Positions 11,222 through 32,300 of a DNA stretch of 52,244 bases are shown here, in pieces. The notes under the pieces are model-generated. The model had not been told where the DNA came from and searched no databases. It saw nothing but the letters and a program-made list of their open reading frames with translations. How positions within the stretch are numbered: the stretch's first letter is position 1; every line of letters begins with the position of its first letter. A program made the translations under genes and the position numbers. Source of the DNA: a candidate division WOR-3 bacterium (GTDB lineage: Bacteria > SDB-A); assembly GCA_016934535.1 (NCBI GenBank), contig JAFGSQ010000054.1:1-52244 (forward strand), read 5' to 3'.

Positions 11222-12438
11222 TGTTTTATCTAAAACTCGCCCTGAGAAATCTTCTTCGTCAGAAAAGAAGGTCCGTCATAACCGGGATAACCATGGCCGG
11301 GGGATTCGCACTTTTTTCAATTTCAATAGCATGGGCGGACGGTTCTTACAAGGGTATCATAGAGGTTTTCACTGAAAACAGACTGGGGCATATTCAGATT
11401 CACGCGGACGGATATCTCGAATCTCCGTCCATCTATAAAAGCGTGAAAGACGCTTATTCGATAGGTTCTGTCGTCTCTGAAATAGAAGGGGTCAAAAGCT
11501 GGACGCCGAGAGTTTTTGCCGGAGGACTCGGAATGGCAGGAGATAAAACAACAGCGGTTCAGATAATAGGAATTGATCCTGAAAAAGAATCGGCGACTTC
11601 GAATTTCGAAAGAAAAATGACAGAAGGCGCTTACCTCGATAATTCCGACAGTAAAAAAGTCATCATAGGCAGAGACCTGGCAAAAATAATATCGGCAGAA
11701 ATCGGTGACACGATTGTGTTTCTTTCGCAGGCGGCAGACGGCTCCATAGCGAACGACCAGTACGAAATAAAGGGAATGGTTTCGACGGGAAATCCGGCTG
11801 AAGACAGAATAAACTGCTACATAATCATTGATGACGCATGGGACCTGTTTTACATGCACGGCAGTTGTCACGAAATATCAATATTGGCTCACTCGATGAA
11901 TGACCTGGATAAGATCGCGGCTGAAATAGAATCGGAAATACCTGAAGAACTTGAGACCAAGACCTGGATTGAATTTGCCGCTCATTTTTACAAGGCCATG
12001 CAGGCAGACAGGGCAGGAGACAGAGTGTTTCGCCTGATAATAATGCTCGTGATATCAGTCGGCGTCTTTAATTCAATTTTGATGTCGGTCCTTGAAAGAA
12101 CGAGGGAATACGGATTATTAAAAGCCCTCGGTATGAAACCCGCCGGTGTTTTCAAGCTTATTTACGCCGAGTTTTTACTTCTCGCAATTTTAAGCGTTTG
12201 CGCAGGAAGTTTAATCGCTGCAGGAGCCATATCATACTTGTCAGTCAAAGGTGTTGTCATAGGGAACGGATTTTCTTACGGAGGCATGGTTTTCAAAGAG
12301 ATGAAAGCCGAATTCAATTTGAGAGCATTGCTCGAACCTCTGTTTCTCCTCTTTATTTCTGTCACAGTAGTCACGTTATTCCCCGCCCTGAAAGCTTCCA
12401 AAACCGACCCGAGCGTAACGATGAGGGATTTCGGATGA
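11221..12438 (+). CDS. ABC transporter permease (FtsX/LolE/MacB type)
   Basis: ALRNLLRQKRRS N-terminus, a large periplasmic domain and MSVLERTREYGLLKALG. Confidence 0.92.
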   Translation: MFYLKLALRNLLRQKRRSVITGITMAGGFALFSISIAWADGSYKGIIEVFTENRLGHIQIHADGYLESPSIYKSVKDAYSIGSVVSEIEGVKSWTPRVFAGGLGMAGDKTTAVQIIGIDPEKESATSNFERKMTEGAYLDNSDSKKVIIGRDLAKIISAEIGDTIVFLSQAADGSIANDQYEIKGMVSTGNPAEDRINCYIIIDDAWDLFYMHGSCHEISILAHSMNDLDKIAAEIESEIPEELETKTWIEFAAHFYKAMQADRAGDRVFRLIIMLVISVGVFNSILMSVLERTREYGLLKALGMKPAGVFKLIYAEFLLLAILSVCAGSLIAAGAISYLSVKGVVIGNGFSYGGMVFKEMKAEFNLRALLEPLFLLFISVTVVTLFPALKASKTDPSVTMRDFG

Positions 12439-13667
12439 AGATTTTTTCTCTATGGCTCAAACTTGCCGGAAGAAATATACTGAGGAACAAGAAAAGAAGT
12501 TTTTTAACTTCGTTGTCCGTCGGTATGGGTCTTGCCGTTCTTATTTTCACAGACGCCTTTATACTCGGATTTCAGGATTACATGAGAATTTCAGCGACTT
12601 CAATATTTTCAGGAGAAGCTCAGATACATGCCGAGAATTATCTCGAGACCATGCAGGCTCAAGACACTTTGTTCGGTTACAGGCAGGTTGTTGAAAGGAT
12701 AAAAGAGCGCCCGGAAGTTCTGTATTTCGCCCCGAGAATTCTGTCAACCGCAACCGTTACTTCAGCTTCAGACATAAAATACATTTATCTTGCCGGAGTA
12801 GATCCTGAAAAAGAAAGAAACATTTCCGTTTTCGACGACTGCCTCGTCGAAGGTGTGTATTTGTCTTCCGACAACCAGCAGGACATTCTATTGGGCAAGG
12901 ACCTTGCAAGAAGCCTCGGCGTCGATTCCGGAGACAAAGTCGTAGTTACGGTGGCTCAGCCTTTCACGGGTCAGATTTATCAGGAACTTTTCAGGGTTTC
13001 AGGCATATTCGAAACGGACATGGAAGAAATAAACAAGACTGTCGTTCTCGTGAATATTGAAAGAGCATCTCAAATACTCGCCCTCGAAGGGAGCGTACAC
13101 GAGATAGCCGTAAAATTCAAAAACTCATATTACGCAGAGAACCTTGAAAATGATTTTTTCAGCGAATTTTCTTTGGACGGCAACAAGACCGCCGGATGGA
13201 CGGAATTGTATCCCGACGTGTCGGCGTTTTTTGACCTTGCAAAAATATCTGTCGGAGTAGTTGCGCTGATAATTTTTTTCATAGTCAGTTTGGGAATAGT
13301 CAACACTATGTTCATGGCAATTTACGATAGAATATTCGAATTTGGCGTCATCAGAGCCATAGGAGCTAAAAAATCGTTCGTTTTTGGGCTTATCATAATC
13401 GAGACTTTTATACTCTGCTTGTGGAGCGTCCTGCTGGGCTGTGTAGCAGGATTTTTAGTCACTTATTTTTTTTCCGTTACAGGTATCGATTATCAGGGCA
13501 TCGAATATGAAAACGTTCTTTTGAGAACCATTTATCCATCCTTGAATCTGTCGCAATTCTATAAATACCCTTTGCTGCTTTTGGCTCTTTCACTTGCGAT
13601 AGCAATATATCCGGCGTCTTACGCTTCGCGCATATCTCTCACAAAAGCCGTAAAAAAAACTTTATAA
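12435..13667 (+). CDS. ABC transporter permease (FtsX/LolE type), second paralogue
   Basis: The true start is the ATGA overlap at 12435 (MKIFSLWLKLAGRNILRNKKRS); it contains MAIYDRIFEFGVIRAIG. Confidence 0.92.
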   Translation: MKIFSLWLKLAGRNILRNKKRSFLTSLSVGMGLAVLIFTDAFILGFQDYMRISATSIFSGEAQIHAENYLETMQAQDTLFGYRQVVERIKERPEVLYFAPRILSTATVTSASDIKYIYLAGVDPEKERNISVFDDCLVEGVYLSSDNQQDILLGKDLARSLGVDSGDKVVVTVAQPFTGQIYQELFRVSGIFETDMEEINKTVVLVNIERASQILALEGSVHEIAVKFKNSYYAENLENDFFSEFSLDGNKTAGWTELYPDVSAFFDLAKISVGVVALIIFFIVSLGIVNTMFMAIYDRIFEFGVIRAIGAKKSFVFGLIIIETFILCLWSVLLGCVAGFLVTYFFSVTGIDYQGIEYENVLLRTIYPSLNLSQFYKYPLLLLALSLAIAIYPASYASRISLTKAVKKTL

Positions 13668-13678
13668 AGGAGCTTTCA

Positions 13679-14368
13679 ATGGAAACGGTCATAATATCCC
13701 TAAAAAACCTGAAGAAAACATATAAAGACGGGGGAGTGCCTGTTGAAGCAGTCAGAGGGATCAGCTGTGAATTTGAAAGAGGAGAGTTCACGGCCGTTGT
13801 CGGACCGTCAGGTTCTGGAAAAACCACACTGATGAATCTGATGGCCGGACTCGATTCCCCTACGGAAGGTTCGTCTTTTCTCGGAGGAACGGACATAAGC
13901 AAGATGAAAGGATCGGAGCTTTCAGATTTCAGAAGAGACAATATAGGATTTATATTCCAATCGTACAATCTGATACCCGTGCTCACAGTGAGGGAAAACA
14001 CCGAATTCATTCTCCTTCTTCAAGGCGTCGGAAAAAAAGAACGTGACAAAAAAATATCGAATATTCTGACAGAAATCGGCCTCGATGGTTTCGCCGACAG
14101 AGTCGTCACAAAACTCTCGGGCGGCCAACAGCAGAGAGTAGCCGTCGCCAGAGCAGTCGCCGCTAATCCGAAAATTATTCTCGCGGACGAACCGACGGCG
14201 AATCTCGATTCTGAAAACAGCTTGAATCTAATAAACCTGATGCTCGACATGAACGAGAAACACGGGACAACTTTTATATTTTCCACTCACGATCAGCTTA
14301 TTATCAGCAAGGCCAAAAGAGTTCTGATAATCAGGGACGGAATGATATTTTCCGACGAAAGAAGATGA
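13679..14368 (+). CDS. ABC transporter ATP-binding protein (LolD/MacB-like)
   Basis: Walker A GPSGSGKT, signature LSGGQQQR, Walker B ILADEPT and H-loop STHD. Confidence 0.96.
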   Translation: METVIISLKNLKKTYKDGGVPVEAVRGISCEFERGEFTAVVGPSGSGKTTLMNLMAGLDSPTEGSSFLGGTDISKMKGSELSDFRRDNIGFIFQSYNLIPVLTVRENTEFILLLQGVGKKERDKKISNILTEIGLDGFADRVVTKLSGGQQQRVAVARAVAANPKIILADEPTANLDSENSLNLINLMLDMNEKHGTTFIFSTHDQLIISKAKRVLIIRDGMIFSDERR

Positions 14369-15525
14369 GCTGTTCAAAAAAACTCTTTTTATTATTTTTT
14401 ACTTTTGTCTATTTCTCCGGTCTGTTCGGAGAGACTGTGGATTTTTCCGGTTACATAAAGAATTATTTCAGCCTGTCGGAATTTACTCCGGAAAAATCGT
14501 CGAGGGGAATGAACACAAACGCAGCCTATTTGAAAATCCGTTTCATTCCGAACGAGTATTTTAGTTTCAACGCCTCGTACAAACTTTCCATGTCCGCATC
14601 GGATCCATACTTCGCGGATTATTTTACGTCTGATGAACTTTCATACAGAGTCACAGACATCAAATCGAGCATATATCCGCGAGAAAATGAAAAGGTAAAA
14701 GCGTTTTTCATCAATCATAACATCGACAGGCTCTACGTTTCCCTGAAAACTAAAAAATTCGATGTTTACACTGGCAGACAGCCGATCTCCTGGGGAATGT
14801 CCAGATTTATTTCACCGACAGATGTTTTGGCCAAAACTTCATTTTTTAATGTGGACAGGGAAGAATTCAGAGGAGTGGACGCAATCGTGGCAAGATTTCC
14901 TTGCGGCACCGGTGAACTGACCGCCGGATCGGTTTTCGGCAGAAACTTTTCAGGAAAAAACTCCGTTCATTACATCAAAACACGGATCGTGTTAAGAGGA
15001 TTTGACACGGAAATTCTGGCGGCACAGGCAAAAGAAGATTTATTGGCCGGGTTTTCATTCTCTTGTCCTTTCAAGGGAGCTTTAATCTGGTTTGAAAACG
15101 CCTGTCATTTCTCGCTCAAAGGATTCAACTCTTCCGCGGGTTTTGATTATTATTTTCCCGGCGGTTTATACGTGTTTTTTGAGTACTATTTTAACAGCTT
15201 CGGCGAAAATTCGGCTGAAAATTATCATCTCAATTCGGTCAAAACAGCTTACGAGAAGAATTTCATATATCTTCAGGCAAAGAATTACCTTTCTTTCGGC
15301 TTGAACAGGCAAATAAACCCCCTCGTATCTATGTCAATGAAAAGTTCTCTGAACGTCTGCGACGTCTCATTGTTCGTCCTGCTTTCATCGGAGATGAATC
15401 TTAGAGAAAATGTCTACATTGAAGTTGGATACGCCACCGGTGTCTCTTTGAACTCTGCTTCCCGGATTTCCGAATACGGAAATTACGGAAAAATGGCTTT
15501 CGCTTCTTCAGTGTTTTATTTTTAA
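14365..15525 (+). CDS. Predicted outer-membrane beta-barrel protein
   Basis: Signal peptide, aromatic-rich alternating strands, IDRLYV...GRQPISWG and a C-terminal VFYF. Confidence 0.75.
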   Translation: MSCSKKLFLLFFTFVYFSGLFGETVDFSGYIKNYFSLSEFTPEKSSRGMNTNAAYLKIRFIPNEYFSFNASYKLSMSASDPYFADYFTSDELSYRVTDIKSSIYPRENEKVKAFFINHNIDRLYVSLKTKKFDVYTGRQPISWGMSRFISPTDVLAKTSFFNVDREEFRGVDAIVARFPCGTGELTAGSVFGRNFSGKNSVHYIKTRIVLRGFDTEILAAQAKEDLLAGFSFSCPFKGALIWFENACHFSLKGFNSSAGFDYYFPGGLYVFFEYYFNSFGENSAENYHLNSVKTAYEKNFIYLQAKNYLSFGLNRQINPLVSMSMKSSLNVCDVSLFVLLSSEMNLRENVYIEVGYATGVSLNSASRISEYGNYGKMAFASSVFYF

Positions 15526-17493: not shown

Positions 17494-18525
17494 TCAAACA
17501 CTGAAAAAGAACTCGACGACGTCTCCGTCTGACATTGTGTATTCTTTACCTTCGGATCTTACCAGATTCAGACTTTTAGCTTTTTGAAAACCGCCCGCTT
17601 TTTTAAGGTCCTCGTAATGCACCACTTGAGCTCTTATGAATCCTCTTTCTATGTCGGAATGGATTTTTCCCGCCGCCTGGGGGGCTTTTGAACCGCTTCT
17701 AGTCAGCCAGGCTCTGCTTTCTTTGGGACCTGTGGTTAAAAATGAGACAAGATCGAGCCCGTTCATGAGCCTTTTCACGAGGTCGTTCCTTCCAGACGCT
17801 CCTACACCGAAATCTTCTCTGAATTTTGCAGCTTCATCTTCGGGAAGATCGGATATTTCAAGTTCGAATTTGGAGCATATAACGACCGCAGGGATCCCTT
17901 TGTCCGTGATCATAGCTTCGATTTCATTTGATTTTTCAAGTCTTTCGTCAGAATTAATGACGGCGAAAGCTTTCAAATGAGAGACGAGGCCGATTTTTTC
18001 GGCCCAAATAAAATCCTGCGGATCGAGGGCACTTCTCAACGGTTTGTTGTTTTCAAGTAAATGAAATATTTTTTCTGACAATATTTTCTTTTCAAGGTCT
18101 TCCATGTTTGTTCTTTTGAATTTATTGTCGTTCAGTCTCAGGAGTCTTCCTTCGACAGTATGAAGATCCGAAAGAATGAGAAAAGTTTCGAGAAGGTCAA
18201 GCTCTGAAAGAGGGTCAGGAGAAGGCAGAGCGGAACCGGGCAAGGTGAAATTCCTGAGACAGTACAAAATGGCGTCCTTGCCTTTTGCCTGAGGCACAAC
18301 TTGTTTTTCAAAGAAGCTTTCGTCTTCCGCGCCGGTTTTCGATGAAGGTGTGTCAACGAGTTCAACTTTTGCATACACTTTCTTTTTCGACGAACTCATT
18401 TCAGTGAGCCAATCGACTCTTTCATCGAGAAGGTCGAGAACACCCCTCGCTATTTTTGATCCTGTCAAAAATTCAAGGAGTGTCGATTTTCCCGAACTTT
18501 TTCTACCGACTATCTGAATTTCCAA
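17494..18525 (-). CDS. Atypical YchF-like ATPase (DUF933/TGS C-terminus)
   Basis: P-loop GRKSSGKST. The C-terminal FLTTGPKESRAW...APQAAGKIHSDIERGFIRAQVV...EGKEY...DGDVVEF is typical of YchF; the switch motifs are divergent. Confidence 0.85.
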   Translation of the reverse strand: MEIQIVGRKSSGKSTLLEFLTGSKIARGVLDLLDERVDWLTEMSSSKKKVYAKVELVDTPSSKTGAEDESFFEKQVVPQAKGKDAILYCLRNFTLPGSALPSPDPLSELDLLETFLILSDLHTVEGRLLRLNDNKFKRTNMEDLEKKILSEKIFHLLENNKPLRSALDPQDFIWAEKIGLVSHLKAFAVINSDERLEKSNEIEAMITDKGIPAVVICSKFELEISDLPEDEAAKFREDFGVGASGRNDLVKRLMNGLDLVSFLTTGPKESRAWLTRSGSKAPQAAGKIHSDIERGFIRAQVVHYEDLKKAGGFQKAKSLNLVRSEGKEYTMSDGDVVEFFFSV

Positions 18526-19411
18526 TAAACACTCTCAGGCTTTCAAGCATATCTTCGTCGGGATTGTATGCTTCCGTAAAAAGGTTGATTTCTCTGAAAT
18601 TCCAGTTTTTTATTCCGCCGTTTTCGTCAATTTCAATATCAATCAGGCCGACAGAAGACATGTCCGTGTGAACTCTGAAATTCAATGTGTGGTTGACAAA
18701 ACTTTCCCATGTTCCGGCAAAACCGTCGAATCCGCCGATAATTATGTCTATGCCGGACACCGCATTGGCTAAAAGAGTGTCGTGCCTGAAACTCGAATGG
18801 CTGAGTGATATTACAATGTCGCAGTCGTTCAATAAAAGCTCTTCAACCGATCTTTCGACGGCGGTCGATTCGTCGAGAATTTTATACTCGTTCAAAATAC
18901 CCTGAGGTAAAAACCATTCCGCGTGACTTGAAACGTGTCCTGTCACCCCGATTCTGACGCCGTTTATATCGTATATTCTGTAAGGGTCAAAAACGAAGTT
19001 ACCCGAGCTGTCTAAAATCGAGGAAGATATAAAACCGCACGAAAGCCCGGGGGAGAGGATTTTTAAAAATTCCACACCTTTGAAAAGGTCATCAATCCCT
19101 ACCGACATTGCGTCGTATCCGATTTTATTTGAGGCGAATATCCCCGCTTTAATTTTACCTGTCGAACCGAGAGGCGAGAGTCCCCAGAAATTACCCGCGT
19201 CGAGAAGCAGATCCGGTTTTTCGAGGGCGCAAAATCCGGAAAGAGATGCCGCGCCCCCCAATGGCGGAGGGAAGGATGAGCTTATCCAAGTGGCCTCAGA
19301 AGGGAGATAACTTCCCTGAACATCCGAGGTAAAGCATATTTTTATCCGTTCAGAAAAAAGACAGTGAACAGCAACTGTAACGAAAATCAGAGACAGTTTA
19401 AGGATTCTCAT
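18503..19411 (-). CDS. Secreted 5'-nucleotidase/UshA-like metallophosphoesterase N-domain with degenerate metal ligands
   Basis: Signal peptide; FTSDVQG, GGAASL, LLLDAGN, GYDAMSVG, VISLSH and GIDIIIGG match the fold order. Confidence 0.8.
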   Translation of the reverse strand: MRILKLSLIFVTVAVHCLFSERIKICFTSDVQGSYLPSEATWISSSFPPPLGGAASLSGFCALEKPDLLLDAGNFWGLSPLGSTGKIKAGIFASNKIGYDAMSVGIDDLFKGVEFLKILSPGLSCGFISSSILDSSGNFVFDPYRIYDINGVRIGVTGHVSSHAEWFLPQGILNEYKILDESTAVERSVEELLLNDCDIVISLSHSSFRHDTLLANAVSGIDIIIGGFDGFAGTWESFVNHTLNFRVHTDMSSVGLIDIEIDENGGIKNWNFREINLFTEAYNPDEDMLESLRVFIGNSDSR

Positions 19412-19979
19412 CTGAATAGCCCTCTTCAGCGTCGAGAATGAGCTCTTCCGTACTGTGTTCCCTGATCTTGTCGTAATAGGATCTCACTTCGCGATAGAAA
19501 TCAGACGATCTTATCATGACCGATATCTCGTTGTTTCTCGCGAGTGCGTAATAAGACCAGTTGGTCGAACCGACGACGACAATTTCGTCGTCAACCAGCA
19601 GCAACTTGTCGTGACTTGTGACGTCGGGCGGGTCCCAGAGCACCTGGACTCCGCCTTCCCGGAGCAGTTCGGCCAGCTGAAGGTTCTGAAAAGTGCTTCC
19701 GAGATTCCATGAGGAGGCGTCGAGTATGATTTCCACTCTTACGCCTCTGCTTACGGCGTCGAAAAGGTCCTGATAAAGAAGTTCGTTTACTCCGTCAGGG
19801 TGAGCCGGATAAGTTCTCGCCTGATACATTATTATCAGGATCTCATTTTCTGCATTTTGAAGAATCTCGTGAAGAATCGGGTAATAATCCCTGTTAGCCA
19901 TCATGACGACTTCATTGGCTCCGAAAGCCGCCAAAGAAAAGGCTGCAGCCGAAAACAATAAGAAAAGTCCGGTTTTCAT
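19398..19979 (-). CDS. Secreted phospholipase D-like protein with a single HKD motif (Nuc-type nuclease candidate)
   Basis: Signal peptide; HDKLLLVDDEIVVVGSTNWS fits HxK(x4)D(x6)GSxN; RGVRVEIILD and NNEIS also present. Confidence 0.88.
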   Translation of the reverse strand: MKTGLFLLFSAAAFSLAAFGANEVVMMANRDYYPILHEILQNAENEILIIMYQARTYPAHPDGVNELLYQDLFDAVSRGVRVEIILDASSWNLGSTFQNLQLAELLREGGVQVLWDPPDVTSHDKLLLVDDEIVVVGSTNWSYYALARNNEISVMIRSSDFYREVRSYYDKIREHSTEELILDAEEGYSDENP

Positions 19980-19988
19980 GTTTTCTCC

Positions 19989-21077
19989 TCAGAGTAAATA
20001 CGTGATTCCGCAGGTCATGCCGACAGAGCTTTCTCTGACTGTAAGAACCGCGTCACCTGGTTTTGGGTAATCTCTCTGATCGTATTGAAAGGACATCGAA
20101 AAAGCGATCGGTTCGAAATCCGTCAAAAATCCTGCCGTGAAAAAAAATACGCCGGCTTGTTTCTCGAAGCAGTTTTCCTCGTAACCGCCTCCGAGAGAAA
20201 AGACGGTTCTGTTGTAAAATTTATTCTCAAGACCGAAGTAAAATGAATTGACGTCTCTGAGTGAATCATTAAGCTGACCGTAAAAATTTCTCCTGAAGTC
20301 AAAATGGATTCTCGAAGGGATGAATCCGGTGTTGCCGACTGATATTCCCAGTCCTGTTTTGAGGGGAGTGTTGGTCTCTTTGTCACTCGTCGAAAAAACA
20401 AAACCTGCCGAATAATTTCTGTGAGAGGCTTTCAAGCCGCCTTTGAAAACAAACGCGTTTTCGTCAAATTTTTCTTCTACGATAGTGTCGGTTCTTCCGG
20501 TTTCGAAAAAAATGTGTTCGTATTTTTTGTCGTAATTCAACGAGAGATAATCCACTTCGGCTCCCGCTGAAAACGCTTTTCCCGAGTAATTTGCCATAAT
20601 TCCGAATATGTTGCCGTTTCCCGACGAACTTTTCGAGATTTCGCTTACTATCTGGTAAAAAGCGTTTCTTTCGACGTATTTGTATTCGTAATTGAAGTCT
20701 GCAGACTGGACCGCAAAAATACCTGTGCCAAATTTCTGGAAATTGAAATAAATCAAAGCGGAATAAGGTGTCAGATTGATACCGCTGTTCTGAGCTATCG
20801 TGAGGCGGCCTATCCTGTTGTTGTAACTGTCGAACACTGACACGACCTCGGATTCAGTTGTATATTTCAGACCGGTGTTGACCGTAAAAGAATATCTGGC
20901 CGGCATTGTGTTGGCAGGATTTACAAGAGGATCGGACGTTATGCCTGCGTAGCCTCTTGAAGCCGTCGAGGTCATGCAGGGATATATCTGCCTGCCTGAA
21001 TTGACGTATTCGAGATATCCCGAATTGAGCAGTGCCGGGAGAGTCAACAACATTAAAAAGAAACGACTAATTTTCAT
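19989..21077 (-). CDS. Predicted outer-membrane beta-barrel (FadL/PorV-like)
   Basis: Signal peptide, N-terminal RGYAG...NPA plug-like motif, amphipathic strands and C-terminal GITYLL. Confidence 0.65.
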   Translation of the reverse strand: MKISRFFLMLLTLPALLNSGYLEYVNSGRQIYPCMTSTASRGYAGITSDPLVNPANTMPARYSFTVNTGLKYTTESEVVSVFDSYNNRIGRLTIAQNSGINLTPYSALIYFNFQKFGTGIFAVQSADFNYEYKYVERNAFYQIVSEISKSSSGNGNIFGIMANYSGKAFSAGAEVDYLSLNYDKKYEHIFFETGRTDTIVEEKFDENAFVFKGGLKASHRNYSAGFVFSTSDKETNTPLKTGLGISVGNTGFIPSRIHFDFRRNFYGQLNDSLRDVNSFYFGLENKFYNRTVFSLGGGYEENCFEKQAGVFFFTAGFLTDFEPIAFSMSFQYDQRDYPKPGDAVLTVRESSVGMTCGITYLL

Positions 21078-21098
21078 CTGCGTCTCCTTGCATATTTG

Positions 21099-23483
21099 CT
21101 AAAATCTGTAATCCATCAAAACAAACAGGTACAGGTTCGATGACACATCATCGAACCCGGGCCTGACCATGGGTAAATTACCGTCCAGATAAAGTTCTTC
21201 GGATCCGTAATAGGGACTGTAAAAAAGATCGTGCCTGACTTTTAACCGCACGAATATATTCTCGTTTATCCTCTGACGGGCGACGAAATACGATTTTATG
21301 CCGTGTCCGTAAAGAAAATCTATTCCCATGTCCTCGAATTCCCACATGCTCATCTCTTCTCCGTTCCAGATGTCCATTCCTCCGAGTATGGAAAATCCTT
21401 CCGAGAATTTGTGCTCGTATCTCCCGGAAAGATAATATCCGGATATCAATTCGGAACTGCCTTTTCCTTCGCGTTGCGACAGAAGAACCTGGCTCCTCGC
21501 GACTGAAAAAGAGAGATAATCGTCATTTTCAAGAAAAAACCTGAGCCTCAGCTCGGTTTCGTTTGTGACGGACGAGCTGTAGTATGATGTTTTCTGCAAT
21601 TTTTTGTTCTGCCATTTTTGCCTGACACTCAGGCTCATGGGATATGAAAATCTGTATTCTATCGTTCCCTGAGATCTGAAATTATCGAGTCCTGTCGCCA
21701 GATTTTTCCACACGTCGACATAAGCCTTTGTCACTGTCAGATTTCTTGTTATCTGATACCTGGTTTCGACGTAAAATCCTTCTTCAGCTTTCGGAACAGG
21801 ATCATATTGAATGTACGCGTAAAGCGGATTCAGAAGCCTGTACGGCTTTTCAAATTCGGTGTCCTCAAAACGTCTTTGTTCTGAGAAACCTCTCGAGAAA
21901 GGATTGTCGTAGCCCAGATCGTAATGCCTGAAGATGAAGTCGAGATAAATGAATTCTTTCTGTATACGCGAAGTCAGTATGAAAGCCTTTGTGCCGTTCT
22001 TCTGTGAAGCGTATTCTCCAGAAAAATAACAAAATCCGGCAAGAACCGTTCTCGCTGAAAGTGAATAGGCGGTTCTCTCATCACCGGATGAAGAAAGCAG
22101 GAAATTCGCATCTTCGAGATTGTCTCTGTCTCCCGGAATATCAATCAAAGATGTCTCGGGATCGAAGCACTTGTCGTATTCTATCCTGTAAACATAGCCT
22201 TCCAGAACCGTCCCGGGCATGAAGCGGTCGAATCTCAGAGAAATACCCGCTCCGCCGAGTTTTTCTTCTACTTTATCTGAATATCCGTCTGTTTTCCAGG
22301 GAAGATGAAAAAACATGACTGCCGTGTCCCCGGAATACATCAGTGCATCTCGCCGGGTGTAGCTTCCGAATACGACAGGATACACGAAATTTTTGAAATT
22401 CAGTTCAGCGGCGATTCCTCTGAAACCGTATTGTTCGTTTGGATTCAGATCGGGATAAAGTCCTCTTATTCTTTGAGTCTGTCTCGCCCTGAATTCCTCC
22501 GAGTTGTCGATGAAAAGACCCTCGGACAATGTCAGCCTGTAGTCTCCGGCTATAATTTTTTCGAGTAATCCGAAATGTTCTAAAAGCATGAAACCGGAAA
22601 ATGAATTCAGATTTCCGGCGCTTGAATTGTAACTTACACCGGCTCTGTATCTATCTGAGTATCCGCCCTTGATTAGAATCGAATGTGAAAAATTATCACT
22701 GATTTCGGAAAGTTCTTCAAGATCTGAAATATTTGATCGCCTGAGAGAATCTATCATGTTTTGAGTCCAGCCTGAGAGTTCCAGGTCCTGATAAACTGAA
22801 GAGTTTTCGTCGCCGAGAACATTTATTCTCTGTGACAGTTCGTCCATGTAACTGTTCAGGTCTCCTTCTTCATCGCGCTGGTTTTCAAGTTCCGTTTTAT
22901 ACCTTAAAATTCCCCACGGCCTGTCTTCAATCGGTTTGTCCGGCTCAAAGACATAGTATCTTATGTTCCGGTAACCGTAAGATGAAAGATTTTCTGTGTT
23001 TCTGAGTTGACCGAGATATCTGTAATCGCCCCATTTTGATCTGTGACCGACAATTGCAGCGGCGTCGACCATGGAAACGCCGTACAGAGAATTCAACTGT
23101 TGAACAGAAGCTTCGTTGAGATCGAGTGGGAAAAGAAGGAGGTTTTCCCAATAATCGATGGCTGACTTACCGGGGTCGTCTTCGGAAGCGAGTCTGTCTT
23201 TGAGCTCGTCTATTCTCAGGTTTCTCCAATCAGCGGGATCCTGAGGGGCTAAAGAAAAATTTTCGAGAATAAACACATAATTCTCAGTGTCCATTTTTCT
23301 TACGTAATAAAGATCGGTGAAAGTCCTGAAAAATCCGTGTTCGTTCCTGTATTCAATAATATTTTCAGCGACGGTGCTGTCTATGGGAAAAGACAAAAGC
23401 TCCTGAAGCGAAACAGTATTTATGTCTTTTTTTTCAGAAGCAACAGCGCTCGCGATGATGAAAAATATAGTCAGCGCAGTCAC
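21099..23483 (-). CDS. Two helix-hairpin-helix (ComEA-like) domains fused to a predicted outer-membrane beta-barrel
   Basis: DINTVSLQELLSFP...AENIIEYRNEHGFFRTFTDL and LDLNEASVQQLNSLYGVS...AAAIVGHRSKWGDY are ComEA/HhH_3-like. The beta-rich C-terminal part ends in LMDYRF. Confidence 0.85.
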   Translation of the reverse strand: MTALTIFFIIASAVASEKKDINTVSLQELLSFPIDSTVAENIIEYRNEHGFFRTFTDLYYVRKMDTENYVFILENFSLAPQDPADWRNLRIDELKDRLASEDDPGKSAIDYWENLLLFPLDLNEASVQQLNSLYGVSMVDAAAIVGHRSKWGDYRYLGQLRNTENLSSYGYRNIRYYVFEPDKPIEDRPWGILRYKTELENQRDEEGDLNSYMDELSQRINVLGDENSSVYQDLELSGWTQNMIDSLRRSNISDLEELSEISDNFSHSILIKGGYSDRYRAGVSYNSSAGNLNSFSGFMLLEHFGLLEKIIAGDYRLTLSEGLFIDNSEEFRARQTQRIRGLYPDLNPNEQYGFRGIAAELNFKNFVYPVVFGSYTRRDALMYSGDTAVMFFHLPWKTDGYSDKVEEKLGGAGISLRFDRFMPGTVLEGYVYRIEYDKCFDPETSLIDIPGDRDNLEDANFLLSSSGDERTAYSLSARTVLAGFCYFSGEYASQKNGTKAFILTSRIQKEFIYLDFIFRHYDLGYDNPFSRGFSEQRRFEDTEFEKPYRLLNPLYAYIQYDPVPKAEEGFYVETRYQITRNLTVTKAYVDVWKNLATGLDNFRSQGTIEYRFSYPMSLSVRQKWQNKKLQKTSYYSSSVTNETELRLRFFLENDDYLSFSVARSQVLLSQREGKGSSELISGYYLSGRYEHKFSEGFSILGGMDIWNGEEMSMWEFEDMGIDFLYGHGIKSYFVARQRINENIFVRLKVRHDLFYSPYYGSEELYLDGNLPMVRPGFDDVSSNLYLFVLMDYRF

Positions 23484-24337
23484 AGCGAATAACCTACTGA
23501 CAGTACGTGGGTAATGGGGAGTACGGAGTGTTGTATTACGGCGTAATCGAGAGCGAAGCCGGTGTAATTGAGAGAAAATCCGGCTGAAAACCTGACCGGT
23601 TCGGTTTGAATACCCGCCCTCAGCGTCAGATATTCTGAAATGCCGTATTCCTGTCCGAACGCAATCCTCAGAGGGAAACCGATTTCCTGCCTGAAATCCA
23701 GGGAAGTGTTTATGTTGTCTGCGGGTTGAAATGATACTCCGGCTCTTATTACGCGGGGAAGATGTTCGGGAGATTCTTTCCCAACGGAAGGAGAATTGAT
23801 GTTTTTCATTGAAAAACCGATTTTCCAGACTCCGTAAAGAGTTCCCAGTACACCCGCATCAAGACCTATTGCGTATGCAGACCCGAATCTTTCCTGTTTC
23901 AGGGAATACGTGTTTACTGAGACACCGGACGAAAAAAACCGGTTCATAATCACTGCGTGAGTGAAAGAAACATAAAGCTCTCTGTGGAGTTCGGCGTCGG
24001 AAGATATGAGAGAACTGTCCGAACTTCTGTAGTCGCCTTTGACAGAAAGCCACCTGGCGTTCAGTGCGGTCGATCCGAGAGTGTTCTGAAAAGAAATGGA
24101 AGCGCCGGCGGAGTTTATCAATCCGAAAGGCTTTTTATAGAATGCCTTGAGCTGAACTCCGCTCAGGAATGCTATCCCAGCAGGATTGTATACCGCTTCG
24201 AGAGGATCGCGGGGGCATGACGTGACGGCTTCCGCCATCCCTTCGGCTCTCGGAGAAGTCTCGACTTCTTCGAAAACCGGCATGAGAAGTGTCGGAAGAA
24301 AAATCGCGAATAAAAGCAGGCAAGTGAATTTTTTCAT
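23480..24337 (-). CDS. PorV/PorQ-like outer-membrane beta-barrel protein
   Basis: SPRAEGMAEA...YNPAGIA N-terminal motif, GLDAG, GFSMKNI, LRAG...SAGFS and LDYA...THVLSVGY. Confidence 0.8.
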   Translation of the reverse strand: MKKFTCLLLFAIFLPTLLMPVFEEVETSPRAEGMAEAVTSCPRDPLEAVYNPAGIAFLSGVQLKAFYKKPFGLINSAGASISFQNTLGSTALNARWLSVKGDYRSSDSSLISSDAELHRELYVSFTHAVIMNRFFSSGVSVNTYSLKQERFGSAYAIGLDAGVLGTLYGVWKIGFSMKNINSPSVGKESPEHLPRVIRAGVSFQPADNINTSLDFRQEIGFPLRIAFGQEYGISEYLTLRAGIQTEPVRFSAGFSLNYTGFALDYAVIQHSVLPITHVLSVGYSL

Positions 24338-24340
24338 TTT

Positions 24341-27298
24341 TCACTCCAAAGGCGTTCCGACCACGAGAGGCCGGTTAATTGAAGTTTCTGTACCGTCCGG
24401 GGATTTGAAGCTGTAATTTATAATATAGACTCCTATACCCGCGGAAATTCCGTACTCAGTGATGCCGTCCCAGATTATCAGCTGAGGACCGCTGGAGGCG
24501 TTTTCAAGAAGCGTTTTTACAAGTCTTCCCTCCATGTCGAATATTCTCAGCGCAATTCTTGATCCTAAAGGAGAATTTAAAAACAAATTGAGATTTTCTC
24601 CTATAGAAAAAGAGACGGGATTCGGATAGACAGTGATGTTCTGTGATTCTGAAACCGGTCCGAAATCGACAGGTTGAAGATCCGTCTGGAATCTCGGCAA
24701 AAGCTGATATCCCGTGGCCGGAGGTTCATCGTATGTGTACTGGCCTACGACGCCGTATATGCTTAACAATTGACCGGGTTTTATGAATGAAAGGTCAAGC
24801 GCCGCGGCGTCGTTCACTCTGACGGTTAGCAGTGTCCTTCCATTCCTGACGGTGAAATCACTGCCTGTGCCGCTTTGCTGTGGGTAAGTCGTAATGACCG
24901 AATTGGATACTTTTACGAGTCTTCCTTCGACGATTTCGTGCAATCCCTCGTTTTCTTTGAGCGCTAAAGTGTCAGGTAAAGGTCTTTCCAGTCCCACTAA
25001 TTCTACTGAATCCGGAGCCGAATAGACAAGTTCAGTCACTCCGTTGTATTCAGTGATCACACCCCTCGCCACGACTTCGGCACCGAGAACAAAAGAAGTG
25101 TTGCCTTTGTCCTGTGAAGAAAAAACGTTTATACCGCCTGTCGAATCCTGTATCCAGAAAGAAGTTTTGGTGGTTGATCCGTTGAAAATTGCGGAGGGAC
25201 CTGTGACTACTCCCGAAACAGCGACGTAACGGCCCTGCATCGAGGAATTGTATCCTCCGGAATCCGGAGATTGTGCAAGAGCTATCGGCAGGACTGCCCA
25301 GATTTCCGGAGAGAGGTATGTTTCCTGAAGGAATTGTGCCTGTTCAACCGATGTTTTTGTTTTCAATGTAAATTTTCCGAAAGAATCCGGAGCCGTGACG
25401 TTTCTGAAAACTATTTCGCATGAACTGTCCGGCGGCAGGTGGAGGTTCCCGACGAACACAACATACCTTCTCGACGAGCCGTTTCCAGCGACGGAGTCGA
25501 CAACGGCAGGCTGACTTATGAGGACATCGGAGGTGTTCCCGCTCCAATGCCATGATGTGTCGGTAAATTCGAAAGACGCGCAGTTCAACGAGTCAATCTC
25601 GGACGTAAGTATTACGGTTATCTCACCGATCGATGAAACAGGGACGGAAGAGAGAAATGAATTAGCAAAACCGCTTCCGTCTCCGCCTTTGCGTATATCG
25701 TAAATGCCTCTCGGCATTAATTGATAACCCGTCGTGAACGGGGATGAAGGGCAGTACTGGGATATCACACCCGTAATTGAAAAACCGTCCGGCGGCAAAG
25801 GTTTTCCCGCGATATCACCGGTCTCTATCCTCAGTTCGAAACTTCCGGTTGGATCCTGTATAGTCATGTTCTGGCCTGTTTGCGGAAACACGGGTGCAGT
25901 TCTCAAAAGATTGTCGATTCTCACGAGTTTTCCTTCAAAATTTTCCACTCCTCCCGAACCTTCAAGAGAGAGGGTCGAACAGGTTGCTGTGACCGGATCA
26001 CGCGGCGTGCAGGTAAAAGGTCCCGACAATACAGTGGACGGCGACAGTTCAGTCAAGCCGTTCCATTGTGTCATTGTTCCCTGAAAAACCGCGCTGTCAC
26101 CTATGGAAAGACCGCCCCCGGGATTGTAAACGCAGACGCCCGCCGTGTTGTCCCAGAGGAAATACTGACCTCCTAATTCTCCGGCAACGGTCATTATTCC
26201 GGTTATTTTGACGGTTTCTCCGAGAAGGAGCGGAACGCCCTGAGAATTATTCTGTCTTAAAAGAGATATCGGCACCGTTCCGTCTAATCTGCTGACAAGG
26301 ATTTCCGGAAAATCCGAAACAGGGGATAGGGAAGTGTCCGATTGGGTTCCCGTGTACACGGCGAGTGTTTCTACTCCCGAAAGCCGAGGGGTCAAGTCGG
26401 CAAGGTTTAGATGCCCACCCGCGAGAGAAGTGATCCCTGCGTTTTCAATGTATAATGTGTCACCGGTTATTGTCAAAGTGGCGTTGAGAAATCCTGCTCC
26501 CGACAGGGTGTACGAACCCGGAAACTCGAAATTTTCCGGGATCAAGAGGATAATGCGGTTGATCTCGCCGAAATCGACAGAAAAAGATACGACAACATTT
26601 TCCGGAACTCCTTCAGTCAGCTGATTTGGATTAACGGTGACTCTTCCAATTCCGGAAAAAGAACCGTATATATCGAAGTCGCCGCGCGGTTCGAGTTTAA
26701 AATCGTCGTATGAATAATTAAGTATTCCGACCAATGCGGCGAGAGTGTCACCCAGAGAGGGCATCGTGTAAGAAGCTTCGTCATTGACTCTGCATGGACC
26801 GGAACCGTCGTTTATTTCCCATTCGCCGTAGCCTAGATTGACGTCAGTAACCACCGGATTCATGATTCCGACCAGCACTCCTTCGTACATTTCGGCCGTA
26901 TCCGGATTACTCGTCGCCAGAGCGCTCGTTGTCACTAAAGTTGGCGCTGGAATGTCACAATCCGTCGATAGTACTGTCAGCGAGCTGAGATATCCAATCT
27001 CTGTCTTGCCGTAGTATTCTGAGACAGTGCCGGTAACTTTTATCGAGTCTCCCGTTCTCACAGTATAGTAGCTCGTGTAAATCAAAATTCCGCTGTAAGG
27101 ACCGACTGAATCCTGAATGTATATCGGATCGTTTGTAAAAGTGCCGTTTTGGACCGTCACTACACCTGAAGTAGTCACCACAGTTCCTATGTACTGCCCC
27201 GTAGTGTCAGATTGTATGTCTCTGATCCTCACATCAGCCGTTAAAGTGAAAACCGGCAAAATGAGAAAAATTAAAAAAAGACGGCGTTTATCAGCCAT
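24341..27298 (-). CDS. Large secreted protein with three tandem OB-fold pairs (YhcR/ExeM-like) and an FlgD-Ig/T9SS-like C-terminal domain
   Basis: Three repeats of G.V...GVVT...IQD..G...GD.V...G...EY.G.TEL, each followed by E..EG.LV......Y.L.PR...DI. The C-terminus is VYPNP...IFDMEGRLVKTL...WDG...GVYI. GGAGG RBS. Confidence 0.85.
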   Translation of the reverse strand: MADKRRLFLIFLILPVFTLTADVRIRDIQSDTTGQYIGTVVTTSGVVTVQNGTFTNDPIYIQDSVGPYSGILIYTSYYTVRTGDSIKVTGTVSEYYGKTEIGYLSSLTVLSTDCDIPAPTLVTTSALATSNPDTAEMYEGVLVGIMNPVVTDVNLGYGEWEINDGSGPCRVNDEASYTMPSLGDTLAALVGILNYSYDDFKLEPRGDFDIYGSFSGIGRVTVNPNQLTEGVPENVVVSFSVDFGEINRIILLIPENFEFPGSYTLSGAGFLNATLTITGDTLYIENAGITSLAGGHLNLADLTPRLSGVETLAVYTGTQSDTSLSPVSDFPEILVSRLDGTVPISLLRQNNSQGVPLLLGETVKITGIMTVAGELGGQYFLWDNTAGVCVYNPGGGLSIGDSAVFQGTMTQWNGLTELSPSTVLSGPFTCTPRDPVTATCSTLSLEGSGGVENFEGKLVRIDNLLRTAPVFPQTGQNMTIQDPTGSFELRIETGDIAGKPLPPDGFSITGVISQYCPSSPFTTGYQLMPRGIYDIRKGGDGSGFANSFLSSVPVSSIGEITVILTSEIDSLNCASFEFTDTSWHWSGNTSDVLISQPAVVDSVAGNGSSRRYVVFVGNLHLPPDSSCEIVFRNVTAPDSFGKFTLKTKTSVEQAQFLQETYLSPEIWAVLPIALAQSPDSGGYNSSMQGRYVAVSGVVTGPSAIFNGSTTKTSFWIQDSTGGINVFSSQDKGNTSFVLGAEVVARGVITEYNGVTELVYSAPDSVELVGLERPLPDTLALKENEGLHEIVEGRLVKVSNSVITTYPQQSGTGSDFTVRNGRTLLTVRVNDAAALDLSFIKPGQLLSIYGVVGQYTYDEPPATGYQLLPRFQTDLQPVDFGPVSESQNITVYPNPVSFSIGENLNLFLNSPLGSRIALRIFDMEGRLVKTLLENASSGPQLIIWDGITEYGISAGIGVYIINYSFKSPDGTETSINRPLVVGTPLE

Positions 27299-28954: not shown

Positions 28955-29347
28955 ATGGAAAATCCTAAATTCCAGATAACAGAAGACTTTCTGAAAGAAA
29001 ATTCAAAAAAAATCAGCGATGAAGACCTTAAGAGGGTCGTCGAGAAAGCCGACGAAATTGAAACAAGGGTAAAAAAAAGCAACATCCTTTCACGTTTTTA
29101 CGACGACATAAAAATGTCTCTATCGATGATTAAAGACTACACGGCGGGTAAATACAAAAAGATTCCGTATTGGGCGCTCTCTTCAATTGCTTTTACGGTT
29201 TTATACATAATAAATCCTGCGGACCTTTTTGCCGATCCTCTGCCGGTTTTAGGTCAGATAGACGACGCCGCACTGATAGGAATATGCCTTTACATGATAG
29301 AAAAGGATTTAAGAAAATACAGGGACTGGAAAACCGGTCTTAAATGA
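28955..29347 (+). CDS. YkvA/DUF1232 family protein
   Basis: YKKIPYW...LYIINPADLFADPLPVLGQIDDA matches the Y..P.D..PD..P..G..DD signature. Confidence 0.88.
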   Translation: MENPKFQITEDFLKENSKKISDEDLKRVVEKADEIETRVKKSNILSRFYDDIKMSLSMIKDYTAGKYKKIPYWALSSIAFTVLYIINPADLFADPLPVLGQIDDAALIGICLYMIEKDLRKYRDWKTGLK

Positions 29348-32300
29348 AGTTTATCAACCGCAGGTACAGAATAGACGGCGAGATAGGCCAGGGAGCCTAC
29401 GGTGTTATTTACAAAGTGACCGATCTTTGGGCGGGTAGAAAAAACCCGAAAATCCTGAAGATTTTCAACACGGACAAACTCGGGAATCAGGATCTAGAGG
29501 GTTTCAAAAACGAATATTTTTACACAAAGAACATCGACATACCCTGCGCTGTAAAAACCTATTCCTTCGAAAAGATTTACAACATCGACGGATTTTCATT
29601 TTACGGAAATTATTATTTCTACACAATGAATTTCGTGAGAGGCGAAAAAATTTCAACTTTTTCCGCATCGTCTAAAAAAGACAGAAAAATACTCGCCGAA
29701 AAAATCCTGTTCTCTTTAAAATGGCTTCACGCAAACGGATACGGTCACGGCGACCTGCATCCTGACAACATCCTGCTGGACGAAAACGATCAAATTGTAT
29801 TTCTCGACTTCATACAGCCGAAAAACATAGAACTTAACAAAGAAAACCTGACCGATTTCGTTATGGAAATAACAGGGATCAAACTTGATCCTGATAAAGA
29901 AAGTTTTCGACACGTAACTCCCAAAAGCGTCTTTGAAATCCTCAAAAAGAATTACAAACTCAACATGGGAACTCTTCGGTATGTCAGAAAAACGTTTGAC
30001 ACGGCTTTTAATCGTTCTGAAAAAGACAAAGGCAGATGTTTCAGAATAAATGCAGTCAATTATAAGAAATCTTATTACGATATTGTAAAGGATTATTTTA
30101 AATCATACGCTGAAATTCACGATTTTTTCTTCATTGATCTCGATCTTTCAAAAGATCCCTTGGCTTATTTCAGCGAATTCAGAGAACAGATGATTAAATC
30201 CCTTGATTTGAGGGGTATAAAATCCAGTGAAATAACAAAAGACGAAGCCATACTAAACGGCGAATCCAAAGCGCTGGAGCACATATTGTCGTCCGTCGTA
30301 AAACTTTCCTATTACGGTAAAGTCGCCATGAGCATAGAAGGGGATGATTGCGATCAGAAAATTACAAATGCCGTCGACAGGATTATGAGAGGTTTCAACG
30401 GAGAAAACCTGTTGATGTTTACCTGTGTTCCAACAAAATCCGATCAGGAAAGTCACTCGTATGATGTTTTTGATCCGCCTGATAAAGACGAATACGCGGA
30501 CGAAATTTCCGGCAAAATCAAAGACCTTTTCTACAACATTGACACCGGCAATCTGACGGACTATATGAGAAAAAACGGGAACTATGACCTTTGCGGTGTC
30601 CTTGAAAGAGTCCTGAAATCACCTGGCGGAATGGACAGAAACGGGAAACTCCTGATTCTTGGCAACAGAATAAGAAAGCACCTGAATGACGAATACAACG
30701 GAAAATTTCTCTCTGTAAAAAAACAGAAAGAATATGAAGAATTTTTCGCTTTTTTTGACCTTCTTATCAAGCCGGCAAATATTTCATTGTTAAAAATGTT
30801 TTTATCGGAAAGCTCTGAAAAAAACACGGAGAGGGTGATAGGGGAGCTATTAAATTCAGGTATCGTATCAAGAAACAGCCCAAACTCTCTGAATTATTTC
30901 GATGAAAATACAGAAAACAGAGTCGGTTCAATCATAAGAAACTCTGAATTAAAAAAACGTGCTGCAGAACGAATAATCGAATTTCTCGAAGGGAAAGAAC
31001 TGACGGTTGAAGAAGAAAAACTTCTGCTCAGTTTATATCTTTCATCGGGTTTAATTAATAAATATGCGTCTTATCTATATCACAATTTCATCGAGCCTTT
31101 CAGGACTTCGACAAACCTGGCAAAAATCACGGGCGATTTTTTTGAAAAAATCAACATTCGATCCAAGTTAAAAGAATCGGACATTAAAGATCCCGTGTTG
31201 AAAGAGGCGGTTGAATACGCTCAGATAAAAACAGCAAATCAGGTGGATATAGTCGAAAGGAACCGAAAACTTAATAATTTTATCCTGAAAAGAAAACCTT
31301 CAAAAATAATTCTTATTTACGTTTATTTCGATTTTTTCAATCAGTTCCTAAACGCCGGCGACATGCAGAATTCGAACACTTTTTACACAAAAATACTCCA
31401 GGAAAAAGAATATTTCAATGAATTTCAAAAACTTGCTTTTCTGATATACGAAGCTAAATTTTTCATTCTTAACTCTGATTTTTTAAAAGCTCTCTATGAT
31501 TTGAGGATATTTTTCAAACAAATCGTCAATAAAAAACACCGAAAATACGCTTATTTGCATTTGAATGCTCTTGAGACCCTTTCGGATTGCTATCACAATG
31601 GCGGTCAAATGATAAAATTCGTCAACACTCTCAAGATATATATGGTCAAAGCTGAAGAGATTTCAACGGTTTCAAAAGATTTCAGCTATCTATTTTCCTC
31701 GAACACAAATTTCGCTTTTTATCACTATAAGTACGGCAATCCTCAAATAGCCAAAAAACACTTTCAAATAGCTCTCGATATCGCTAAAAAAAATGGCGAT
31801 TACAACGATTTGATTCTCGCGTGCAACAATCTGGCTGCAATAGAAAACGACACTATAATGACACTTGCGTATTTAAAAGACGCGTTAAAATATTCAAAAC
31901 TTCTGGGCGAGAACATATATATATATCTTGTTCTTTCCAACATACTTTCATTGAACATTGAACCCTTGGAAAAATACAAATTTCTTGAACAAAATTATTC
32001 CCTTGTCAAAAGATGTTACAAAGACCATGAAATTTCAGTAAAGTTCTGCCTGAACATCTTTTATTCAATCATAAGCATATTGTTGTCGCTGAATAAAAAA
32101 GATGAACTTGTTTCATTTTTCGACCATCTGAAAAAGACTGAAATTGAAAAAAATAAAATGCCCGACGCATATCTTTTTAAAAAAATCGTGGCTTTGTTTT
32201 ATGAAATTAACGTAAATGGATATAAAAACGAGTATTATAAAATGTTTTATGATATTCTGGACGAATTTAAAAATATAAATAACTATGATTTAATTCTTTA

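Follow-up and report, generated by a model that had tools for sequence, protein, structure and literature searches.

A conserved, apparently undescribed outer-membrane operon built around a helix-hairpin-helix-tipped barrel: a candidate module for extracellular nucleic-acid foraging

The described system closest in function to the operon analyzed here is ddbABCDEF of Bacteroides thetaiotaomicron (bioRxiv 10.1101/2025.03.18.642099); the accessible part of that preprint describes a DUF5689/HIN-like surface binder that is a lipoprotein (DdbD is reported to resemble the p202 HIN domain), an outer-membrane channel (DdbC) that is a TonB-dependent transporter (TBDT), and co-encoded secreted nucleases (DdbA/B/F) in mix-and-match enzyme sets, arranged as a PUL-like locus. 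In Riemerella anatipestifer, according to the accessible text (PMC8459023), pilus-free DNA entry requires a DUF5689 protein, a beta-barrel, and a helix-hairpin-helix (HhH) protein (RA0C_RS04915/04920/02645). In type IX secretion systems (T9SS), a type B cargo gene is directly followed by the gene for its own small barrel, the SprF/PorP shuttle, and PorV goes with C-terminal domains of type A (PMC12618676, accessible part). We analyzed a 52,244-nucleotide stretch of DNA (the window) from a candidate division WOR-3 bacterium (GCA_016934535.1, contig JAFGSQ010000054.1); an earlier note on this DNA had proposed that seven genes at 17494–27298 form a candidate outer-membrane system for capturing, importing, or degrading extracellular DNA. 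The operon is real, conserved, and apparently undescribed.

Seven open reading frames (ORFs) were confirmed in this interval, all on the minus strand and separated, in gene order, by +3, −4, +21, +9, −14, and −23 bp (Table 1). Hydrophobic, signal-peptide-like N-termini were read by eye on six of the seven proteins, that is, on all except the YchF-like ATPase, and a lipobox was found in none of the six. The description of the run as seven co-oriented and tightly spaced genes, six with signal peptides, is therefore confirmed, and Pfam and NCBIfam scans agree with the domain labels that had been given to them. The same tight run continues upstream (gaps of +21 and −41 bp) into genes for an acyltransferase of the hexapeptide type and an NAD-dependent epimerase, which had been overlooked, so spacing alone cannot delimit the system; a promoter and terminator scan gave no signal that delimits the unit, and three RNA assemblies from the same study gave only chance matches of 18–33 bases.

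Gene neighborhoods were compared in 96 loci that encode a barrel with two HhH domains (type I), namely the best 80 of 153 from a genome scan plus 2 and 14 others, with two duplicates dropped; gene-presence counts are for loci with sufficient flanking DNA. Gene order in the operon is nearly invariant: the gene for a protein with OB folds and a T9SS tail precedes the PorV-like gene (70/80 loci), the PorV-like gene is directly upstream of the HhH barrel gene (80/83), the gene for a FadL-like second barrel is directly downstream of it (78/91), and a 5'-nucleotidase gene is present in 70 of 83 loci. The gene for a phospholipase D-type protein (PLD) is present in 11 of 79. The records are labeled Fermentibacteria, TA06, Edwardsbacteria, Stahlbacteria, WOR-3, Cloacimonadota, Latescibacterota, and Hydrothermota, with 14 further loci besides. 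Several uncultured bacterial phyla thus share an operon to which six of the seven genes belong; its core consists of five genes (OB/tail protein, PorV-like barrel, HhH barrel, FadL-like barrel, and nucleotidase), and the PLD is a lineage add-on. The synteny that the earlier note had asked for is found across phyla for the core genes. The note had also counted the gene for the YchF-like ATPase as a member; this gene lies downstream in just 3 of 69 loci, of which two are from the family of the window itself, and is an adjoining bystander outside the system.

Next to barrels of this family, nucleic-acid enzymes of unrelated kinds turn up repeatedly: 5'-nucleotidases, PLDs, endonuclease/exonuclease/phosphatase (EEP) nucleases, and, in L154, a T9SS-tailed endonuclease I. 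Many of the receptors have lamin-tail domains, and further EEP and PLD genes are located near HhH barrels. It is these recurrent nuclease and lamin-tail neighbors that argue most strongly for a nucleic-acid substrate. In the accessible part of a study of sediments (PMC8289736), extracellular DNA is described as a major pool of phosphorus, nitrogen, and carbon, and proteins with lamin-tail and nuclease domains are found in DNA-degradation loci. The nucleic-acid theme proposed for the locus is thus backed by repeated nuclease swaps and by the DUF5689/HIN-like OB pair and the basic pore lining described below, and we judge the chances to be somewhat better than even that the operon is an outer-membrane module for foraging on extracellular nucleic acids.

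The candidate receptor contains OB-pair units at about residues 22–215, 343–540, and 669–875 with spacers between them (repeat mapping), and the last OB pair and the tail are its family-invariant core; relatives range from 334–370 residues (one pair and the tail) to more than 1200 residues with lamin-tail, Ig, and Fn3 domains. In Pfam it matches DUF5689 (E 1e-11, 45.2 bits vs a cut-off of 28.6) and the tRNA_anti-codon OB family, and it also matches the N-terminal part of ExeM/NucH; the DUF5689 profile has matches in B. subtilis and B. thetaiotaomicron as well. In YhcR from B. subtilis, OB folds are joined to nuclease and nucleotidase functions; the receptor has the same OB type as YhcR and ExeM/NucH but no catalytic domain, the functions being divided over the operon. 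The invariant part was modeled with a predicted local distance difference test score (pLDDT) of 93; HIN–dsDNA (double-stranded DNA) complexes are the top-ranked Foldseek matches for the OB pair, and VIA comparisons matched the OB pair to RPA and tRNA-synthetase OB domains (Z about 12) and the tail to the C-terminal domain of PorU (Z 12.1, root-mean-square deviation [rmsd] 2.7, 94 aligned).

The tail scores 23.5 bits against the T9SS type A family TIGR04183 (cut-off 23) and ends, family-wide, with a VVGTxL-type motif that differs from nearly all of the other 68 tail-like matches (69 in total) in the window's genome. This genome encodes a SprA translocon (an ORF of 1862 aa, G000:C71) and a PorU-like gene beside a PorV-like gene (C45:22275-27514), and export of the receptor probably depends on the T9SS. 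The small barrel encoded directly downstream of the receptor gene matches the PorV/PorQ family NF033709 (E 6e-15) with 55.7 bits, under the curated cut-off of 90 bits, and the profile of its own family matches the solved PorV (E 6e-9); by profile, it is a PorV-like relative rather than PorV proper. Because of the tail fold, a gene order like that of type B cargo and SprF/PorP, and the genomic SprA, surface anchoring of the OB protein by this barrel is a reasonable inference, and the idea of a T9SS-tailed OB surface protein with its own PorV-like anchor gains support from tail fold and synteny. The second small barrel had no match in the Pfam or NCBIfam scans and so belongs to no named family; in L029 and L161, two loci from one family, two CAP-domain genes are inserted between it and the nucleotidase.

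In the AlphaFold2 model of the HhH barrel (pLDDT 80), two helical domains at the N-terminus are followed by 24 membrane strands, counted from the strand list, and HHH_3 matches the protein twice (two stretches, E 4e-19); one relative (P0075, 1251 aa) carries a long and apparently TPR-rich N-terminal extension ahead of the two HhH domains and the barrel. Three fold searches returned generic barrels, the best being FimD (Z 15.7, rmsd 4.3, 370 aligned), only about 1 Z above unrelated porins and with identities of 7–13%; the lack of a family-level match in these searches does not prove a new fold. Structure prediction, which had been suggested as a check, thus yielded models of the barrel and of the OB/tail core, with recognizable barrel and PorU-like tail folds, but no family-level relative of the barrel. 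Positions inferred to face the lumen carry on average 30.6 Lys/Arg vs 19.2 Asp/Glu, and conserved basic lumen residues are located on strands 1–4, 13–17, and 22–23. The linker that joins the two HhH domains is acidic (net −4.6; negative in 177 of 185 sequences); because structural alignments to TBDTs and other plugged barrels start at model residues 84–103, the linker probably lies in the lumen as a plug. Such a pore, basic and probably plugged by an acidic segment, fits a gate for polyanions. Coevolution analysis of 197 sequences recovered some strand neighbors (L193–I271, E308–E360) and was too noisy for contacts between plug and barrel.

What the window adds to this operon is the replacement of the usual nucleotidase by a PLD and a pseudo-nucleotidase. 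The PLD matches PLDc_2 with one HKD motif, and HxKx4Dx6GSxN together with a downstream Glu is invariant in 16 of 16 sequences, that is, the protein has the intact HKD/GSxN/E set of the Nuc, NucT, and Zucchini PLDs. Its nearest solved proteins are MitoPLD, NucT, and Nuc (E 8e-8 to 4e-4), and because all three match, nuclease and lipase are inseparable by sequence; we infer that it acts as a periplasmic phosphodiesterase/nuclease. In the adjoining protein the DxH, GD, GNH, and GHxH motifs are broken, and of the metal ligands only the first Asp and one His remain (CD73 alignment); it has no match to 5_nucleotid_C, and full-length relatives have a C-terminal substrate-binding domain. It shares the metallophosphoesterase fold with UshA and CD73 but is a conserved pseudo-enzyme coupled to a PLD. 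Assignment of this protein to the 5'-nucleotidase-like fold and family therefore stands, but its proposed role as a processing enzyme does not, because the domain is truncated and most metal ligands are lost.

When 60 operon neighbors were aligned (three omitted for length), all 11 PLD-adjacent nucleotidases were short and dead alike, and GNH was kept in 48 of the 49 without a PLD (the exception is L040). In a metagenome scan for the PLD (best 80 of 163; some loci redundant), a nucleotidase-like gene adjoins 30 of the 35 high-scoring PLDs whose loci had sufficient DNA vs 1 of 28 low-scoring ones, and GNH or GHxH was kept in none of the 30 PLD-adjacent nucleotidases long enough to align. Twelve PLD/pseudo-nucleotidase pairs are in the barrel operon, and at least 12 have at least 3.5 kb of upstream DNA free of barrel genes; the pair travels together as a two-gene cassette, also outside the operon. 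Our literature search, which was not aimed at the pair, found no description of it.

The barrel-less cassette loci (L186, L190, L195, L196, L201, L227, L238, and L270) often lie directly after an apparent lipoyl-synthase-like gene, and the PLD is about twice as long in L227 and L238.

In a nucleotidase tree from which 25 redundant Fermentibacterota rows were left out, the PLD-linked dead forms are one clade (SH-aLRT, an approximate likelihood-ratio test, 100; long branches) that is sister to the active operon members, pointing to one origin of the dead nucleotidase and its long retention. In the barrel tree, the PLD loci are scattered over five poorly resolved groups; the idea that the link between PLD and dead nucleotidase arose many times was considered and is unsupported, given the single clade in the nucleotidase tree. 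The pseudo-nucleotidase of the window retains an FPP loop characteristic of the subfamily, as do 47 of 48 active operon members and 42 of 43 dead forms; the ordinary UshA of the genome, an intact enzyme encoded elsewhere, lacks this loop. In another locus, the enzyme slot of the operon is occupied by a fusion of a degenerate nucleotidase N-domain with an EEP nuclease (L157:4910-6790, minus strand); next comes another EEP, which carries lamin-tail and dockerin domains (L157:3280-4860, minus strand). These sequence patterns suggest that the dead nucleotidase domain is a docking adaptor for a nuclease.

In the mechanism that we envisage for foraging, the OB-pair protein would be exported through the SprA/T9SS of the genome and retained on the cell surface by the cognate PorV-like barrel, and its OB pairs, whose fold is modeled, would bind DNA or RNA, probably single-stranded or metal-bridged, through conserved aromatic residues. 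Fragments would then pass through the 24-strand barrel along the basic ladder after displacement of the acidic N-terminal plug, with periplasmic hydrolysis instead of TonB as the likely sink for import. The final periplasmic step would be performed in most lineages by an active 5'-nucleotidase; here, it may be performed by a Nuc-type PLD recruited by the dead nucleotidase domain, with dephosphorylation by the UshA encoded elsewhere. We propose only tentatively, with the balance against it, that the HhH-tipped barrel represents a new channel class for nucleic acids, one that needs neither pili nor TonB and has as its gate an acidic plug that mimics nucleic acid, and that in this lineage the nucleotidase has become a scaffold by which the PLD nuclease is docked to the pore.

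Several observations weigh against foraging and this mechanism. The OB pair is acidic (mean net −14; net negative in 35 of 37) and has conserved Tyr, Phe, and Trp residues and just two conserved Arg, which speaks against simple dsDNA binding. GhG (Gly-hydrophobic-Gly, the hairpin motif that contacts DNA phosphate) is found in just 2, 1, 0, and 2 of 65 sequences at the four HhH hairpins, and an invariant Asp in the second HhH domain stands where the genome's own ComEA has Lys; the "DNA-binding pore" of the earlier note thus survives as a large pore with a basic lumen but not as canonical ComEA-type HhH DNA binding. The protein's own acidic plug can be a reason for the basic lumen that does not involve DNA. 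The PLD is acidic (net −18), and its nearest solved relative is MitoPLD. The loci are not independent events, with Fermentibacterota dominating the best-80 set from the genome scan, and neither are the dead nucleotidases, which form one clade. The barrel is kept without the nucleotidase in 13 of 83 loci and without the OB protein in 10 of 80, and the locus has no gene for an energizer or an inner-membrane transporter.

The operon was compared with the published systems as far as their accessible texts describe them. The operon has in common with ddb a DUF5689/HIN-like surface binder, an outer-membrane channel, co-encoded secreted nucleases (putative in the operon), and exchangeable enzyme sets. 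It differs in having an HhH-tipped barrel of about 24 strands in place of the DdbC-type TBDT, a T9SS-tailed receptor with a PorV-like partner in place of the lipoprotein, two extra small barrels, and a nucleotidase or PLD/pseudo-nucleotidase in place of DdbA/B/F. No TonB-dependent barrel, plug, or carboxypeptidase-like domain was found in Pfam/NCBIfam scans of the seven proteins, and the genome's three TBDT matches are on other contigs; because the DdbC-type transporter is absent, the operon is functionally like ddb but is no member of it. The DUF5689 protein, beta-barrel, and HhH component are common to the operon and the Riemerella competence genes (PMC8459023). As in the T9SS cargo/shuttle pairs (PMC12618676), a tail gene is followed by that for a small shuttle-type barrel in a genome with SprA; however, the tail folds like that of PorU (type A) and ends in a motif of its own, the barrel resembles PorV/PorQ and not PorP, and the locus is outside Bacteroidota. 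The HhH barrel shares with ComEA the HHH_3 domains on the predicted periplasmic side, but HHH_3 is fused to a large barrel and the GhG hairpins are lost; a canonical ComEA with GhG is encoded separately in the genome. A literature search, for which most subscription papers and supplements were outside coverage, found no description of the HhH barrel or the operon. The statement that this is not a described system therefore holds for the architecture; the function and the DUF5689-type receptor have precedents in ddb and Riemerella.

The pair of PorV-like and HhH barrels has a paralogue that extends to Bacteroidota. This type II barrel is shorter (about 570–720 aa), has one HhH, and matches the barrel profile over most of its length; it is present in Parabacteroides, Bacteroides, Phocaeicola, and Prevotella records, and the copy in B. 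finegoldii has no annotated PorV-like neighbor and no nuclease neighbor. Most Bacteroidota are not known to have type IV pili. The PorV-like barrel of 5 of 17 type II loci carries a fused HhH domain of the canonical GIG type; one such fusion also carries OB domains and is beside a five-HhH protein (L172, G111:C44: PorV-OB-OB-HhH fusion, five-HhH/LysM protein, and barrel, directly upstream of a type II secretion-like cluster). Some genomes carry both types. The window's genome encodes a PorV-like barrel with a C-terminal canonical ComEA-type HhH domain (G000:C16:8855-9880, minus strand), but the type II HhH barrel that adjoins such fusions elsewhere was not found in it.

SprA is encoded by the window's genome and by all 25 other type I genomes, vs 73 of 201 in a broad sample; these SprA-like genes are widespread outside Bacteroidota, with ORFs mostly of 1550–2360 aa, and include genes in small genomes of 1.2–1.9 Mb. 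In that sample, 37 of the 38 barrel-bearing genomes examined are SprA-positive, an overlap that is inflated by shared ancestry, and about half of the SprA-positive genomes (73 vs about 38 of 201) have no barrel. The idea that the barrel replaces SprA was rejected: Pfam misses were divergent SprA proteins in four of five genomes retested, and the SprA of G181 was also found later. G111 (93% complete) is the only barrel-bearing genome examined in which SprA was not detected.

This association is part of the case for the foremost of the other explanations, itself improbable, in which the operon is a T9SS-accessory or envelope module: the HhH domains would be structural (a plug or protein-binding), the barrels would act like SprA–PorV or BamA–BamG on a protein or lipid-linked substrate, and the nucleotide enzymes would be mere neighbors. 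The non-canonical hairpins and the B. finegoldii barrel agree with this explanation, and the pairing of a large barrel with a 14-strand FadL-type barrel is known from SprA–PorV and BamA–BamG; however, the barrel, which roughly half of the SprA-positive genomes do without, is not a core component of the T9SS, SprA is not replaced, and repeated recruitment of non-homologous nucleases is hardly chance. An explanation in terms of small molecules ranks last, and we consider it the least probable of all: the operon would scavenge phosphorylated or anionic substrates (nucleotides, NAD, nucleotide sugars, cyclic dinucleotides, and teichoic-acid or lipid head groups), and the PLD might be lipid- or diester-specific. 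The most constant enzyme is the 5'-nucleotidase, an OB surface that is both acidic and aromatic fits bases or nucleotides bound to metal, the best solved match of the PLD is MitoPLD, and the cassette also exists without the barrel; yet small nucleotides need neither a 24-strand pore nor a multi-repeat receptor, and the endonuclease I, EEP, and multi-HhH neighbors target polymers.

Between these two in rank, and likewise unlikely, is a pilus-independent DNA entry pore for transformation, with the barrel handing intact DNA to ComEA/ComEC while the enzymes trim or salvage. This explanation is more plausible for the type II pair, which it fits better than the present operon: type II PorV-like barrels carry canonical HhH domains, one type II locus (in G019) is only a few kb from two ComEC-type genes, and type II barrels are present in the Bacteroidota records listed above. 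A 24-strand barrel also equals the usher pore in size, and in the accessible text the Riemerella DUF5689 protein is essential for transformation (PMC8459023); that text, with supplementary tables not covered, gives no sign of an HhH barrel among the genes of the screen. Against such a pore, the window's genome already has a secretin in a pilMNOPQ-like cluster (pil names by sequence reading), PilB/PilT-like genes beside the canonical ComEA, and also ComEC and DprA, the last encoded in the window itself (37775-38761, minus strand), 10 kb away from the operon and within a run of housekeeping genes. Secretin and ComEC are both found in all 25 other type I genomes and secretin in 10 of 12 type II-only genomes, and the co-encoded nucleotidase/nuclease would destroy information. 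With secretin and ComEC in every one of those type I genomes and hydrolases in the operon, a second route for genetic uptake is unneeded, and foraging is likelier than transformation. The proposed independence from pili and secretins accordingly applies to the locus itself but not to the genomes that carry it.

Table 1. Coordinates of the seven co-oriented genes in the window, in gene order.
Feature	Coordinates	Strand	Length (aa)	Remarks
Surface receptor candidate	24341..27298	-	985	Signal peptide; three tandem OB-pair units; T9SS-type C-terminal domain
PorV-like barrel	23480..24337	-	285	Putative cognate shuttle/anchor for the tail of the OB protein
HhH outer-membrane barrel	21099..23483	-	794	About 24 strands; C-terminal aromatic residue; putative channel
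FadL/OmpP1-like second barrel	19989..21077	-	362	ESM Atlas neighbors with Toluene_X/OmpP1; putative partner/anchor subunit
Single-HKD PLD	19398..19979	-	193	Nuc/Zucchini type; signal peptide; no T9SS tail; accessory
Truncated pseudo-5'-nucleotidase	18503..19411	-	302	N-terminal metallophosphoesterase domain only; 5'-nucleotidase/SoxB-like
YchF-like ATPase	17494..18525	-	343	Adjacent

Elsewhere in the window, a 1472 aa protein (29344-33762, plus strand) that is conserved in the genus has a Ser/Thr-kinase-like domain fused to a C-terminal GGDEF domain. A single run (10481-15525, plus strand) encodes a LolA-like protein, two FtsX/LolE-like permeases, an apparent ABC ATPase, and a 386 aa unnamed barrel-like protein. 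A GH18 chitinase-like protein with SH3 domains (5929-8145, plus strand) and an S8 protease with a weak T9SS-tail match (49216-51585, minus strand) are also encoded.

If foraging is the function, the operon would mark nucleic-acid foraging in these candidate lineages and offer a machine for it that can be tested, linking a T9SS-type receptor to a pore family for which no solved relative was found; the paralogue in culturable Bacteroidota may open this pore to genetics. The PLD/pseudo-nucleotidase cassette would be a clean case of an enzyme that is retained as an adaptor after catalysis has been lost, and both of its proteins are small enough for expression and assay.

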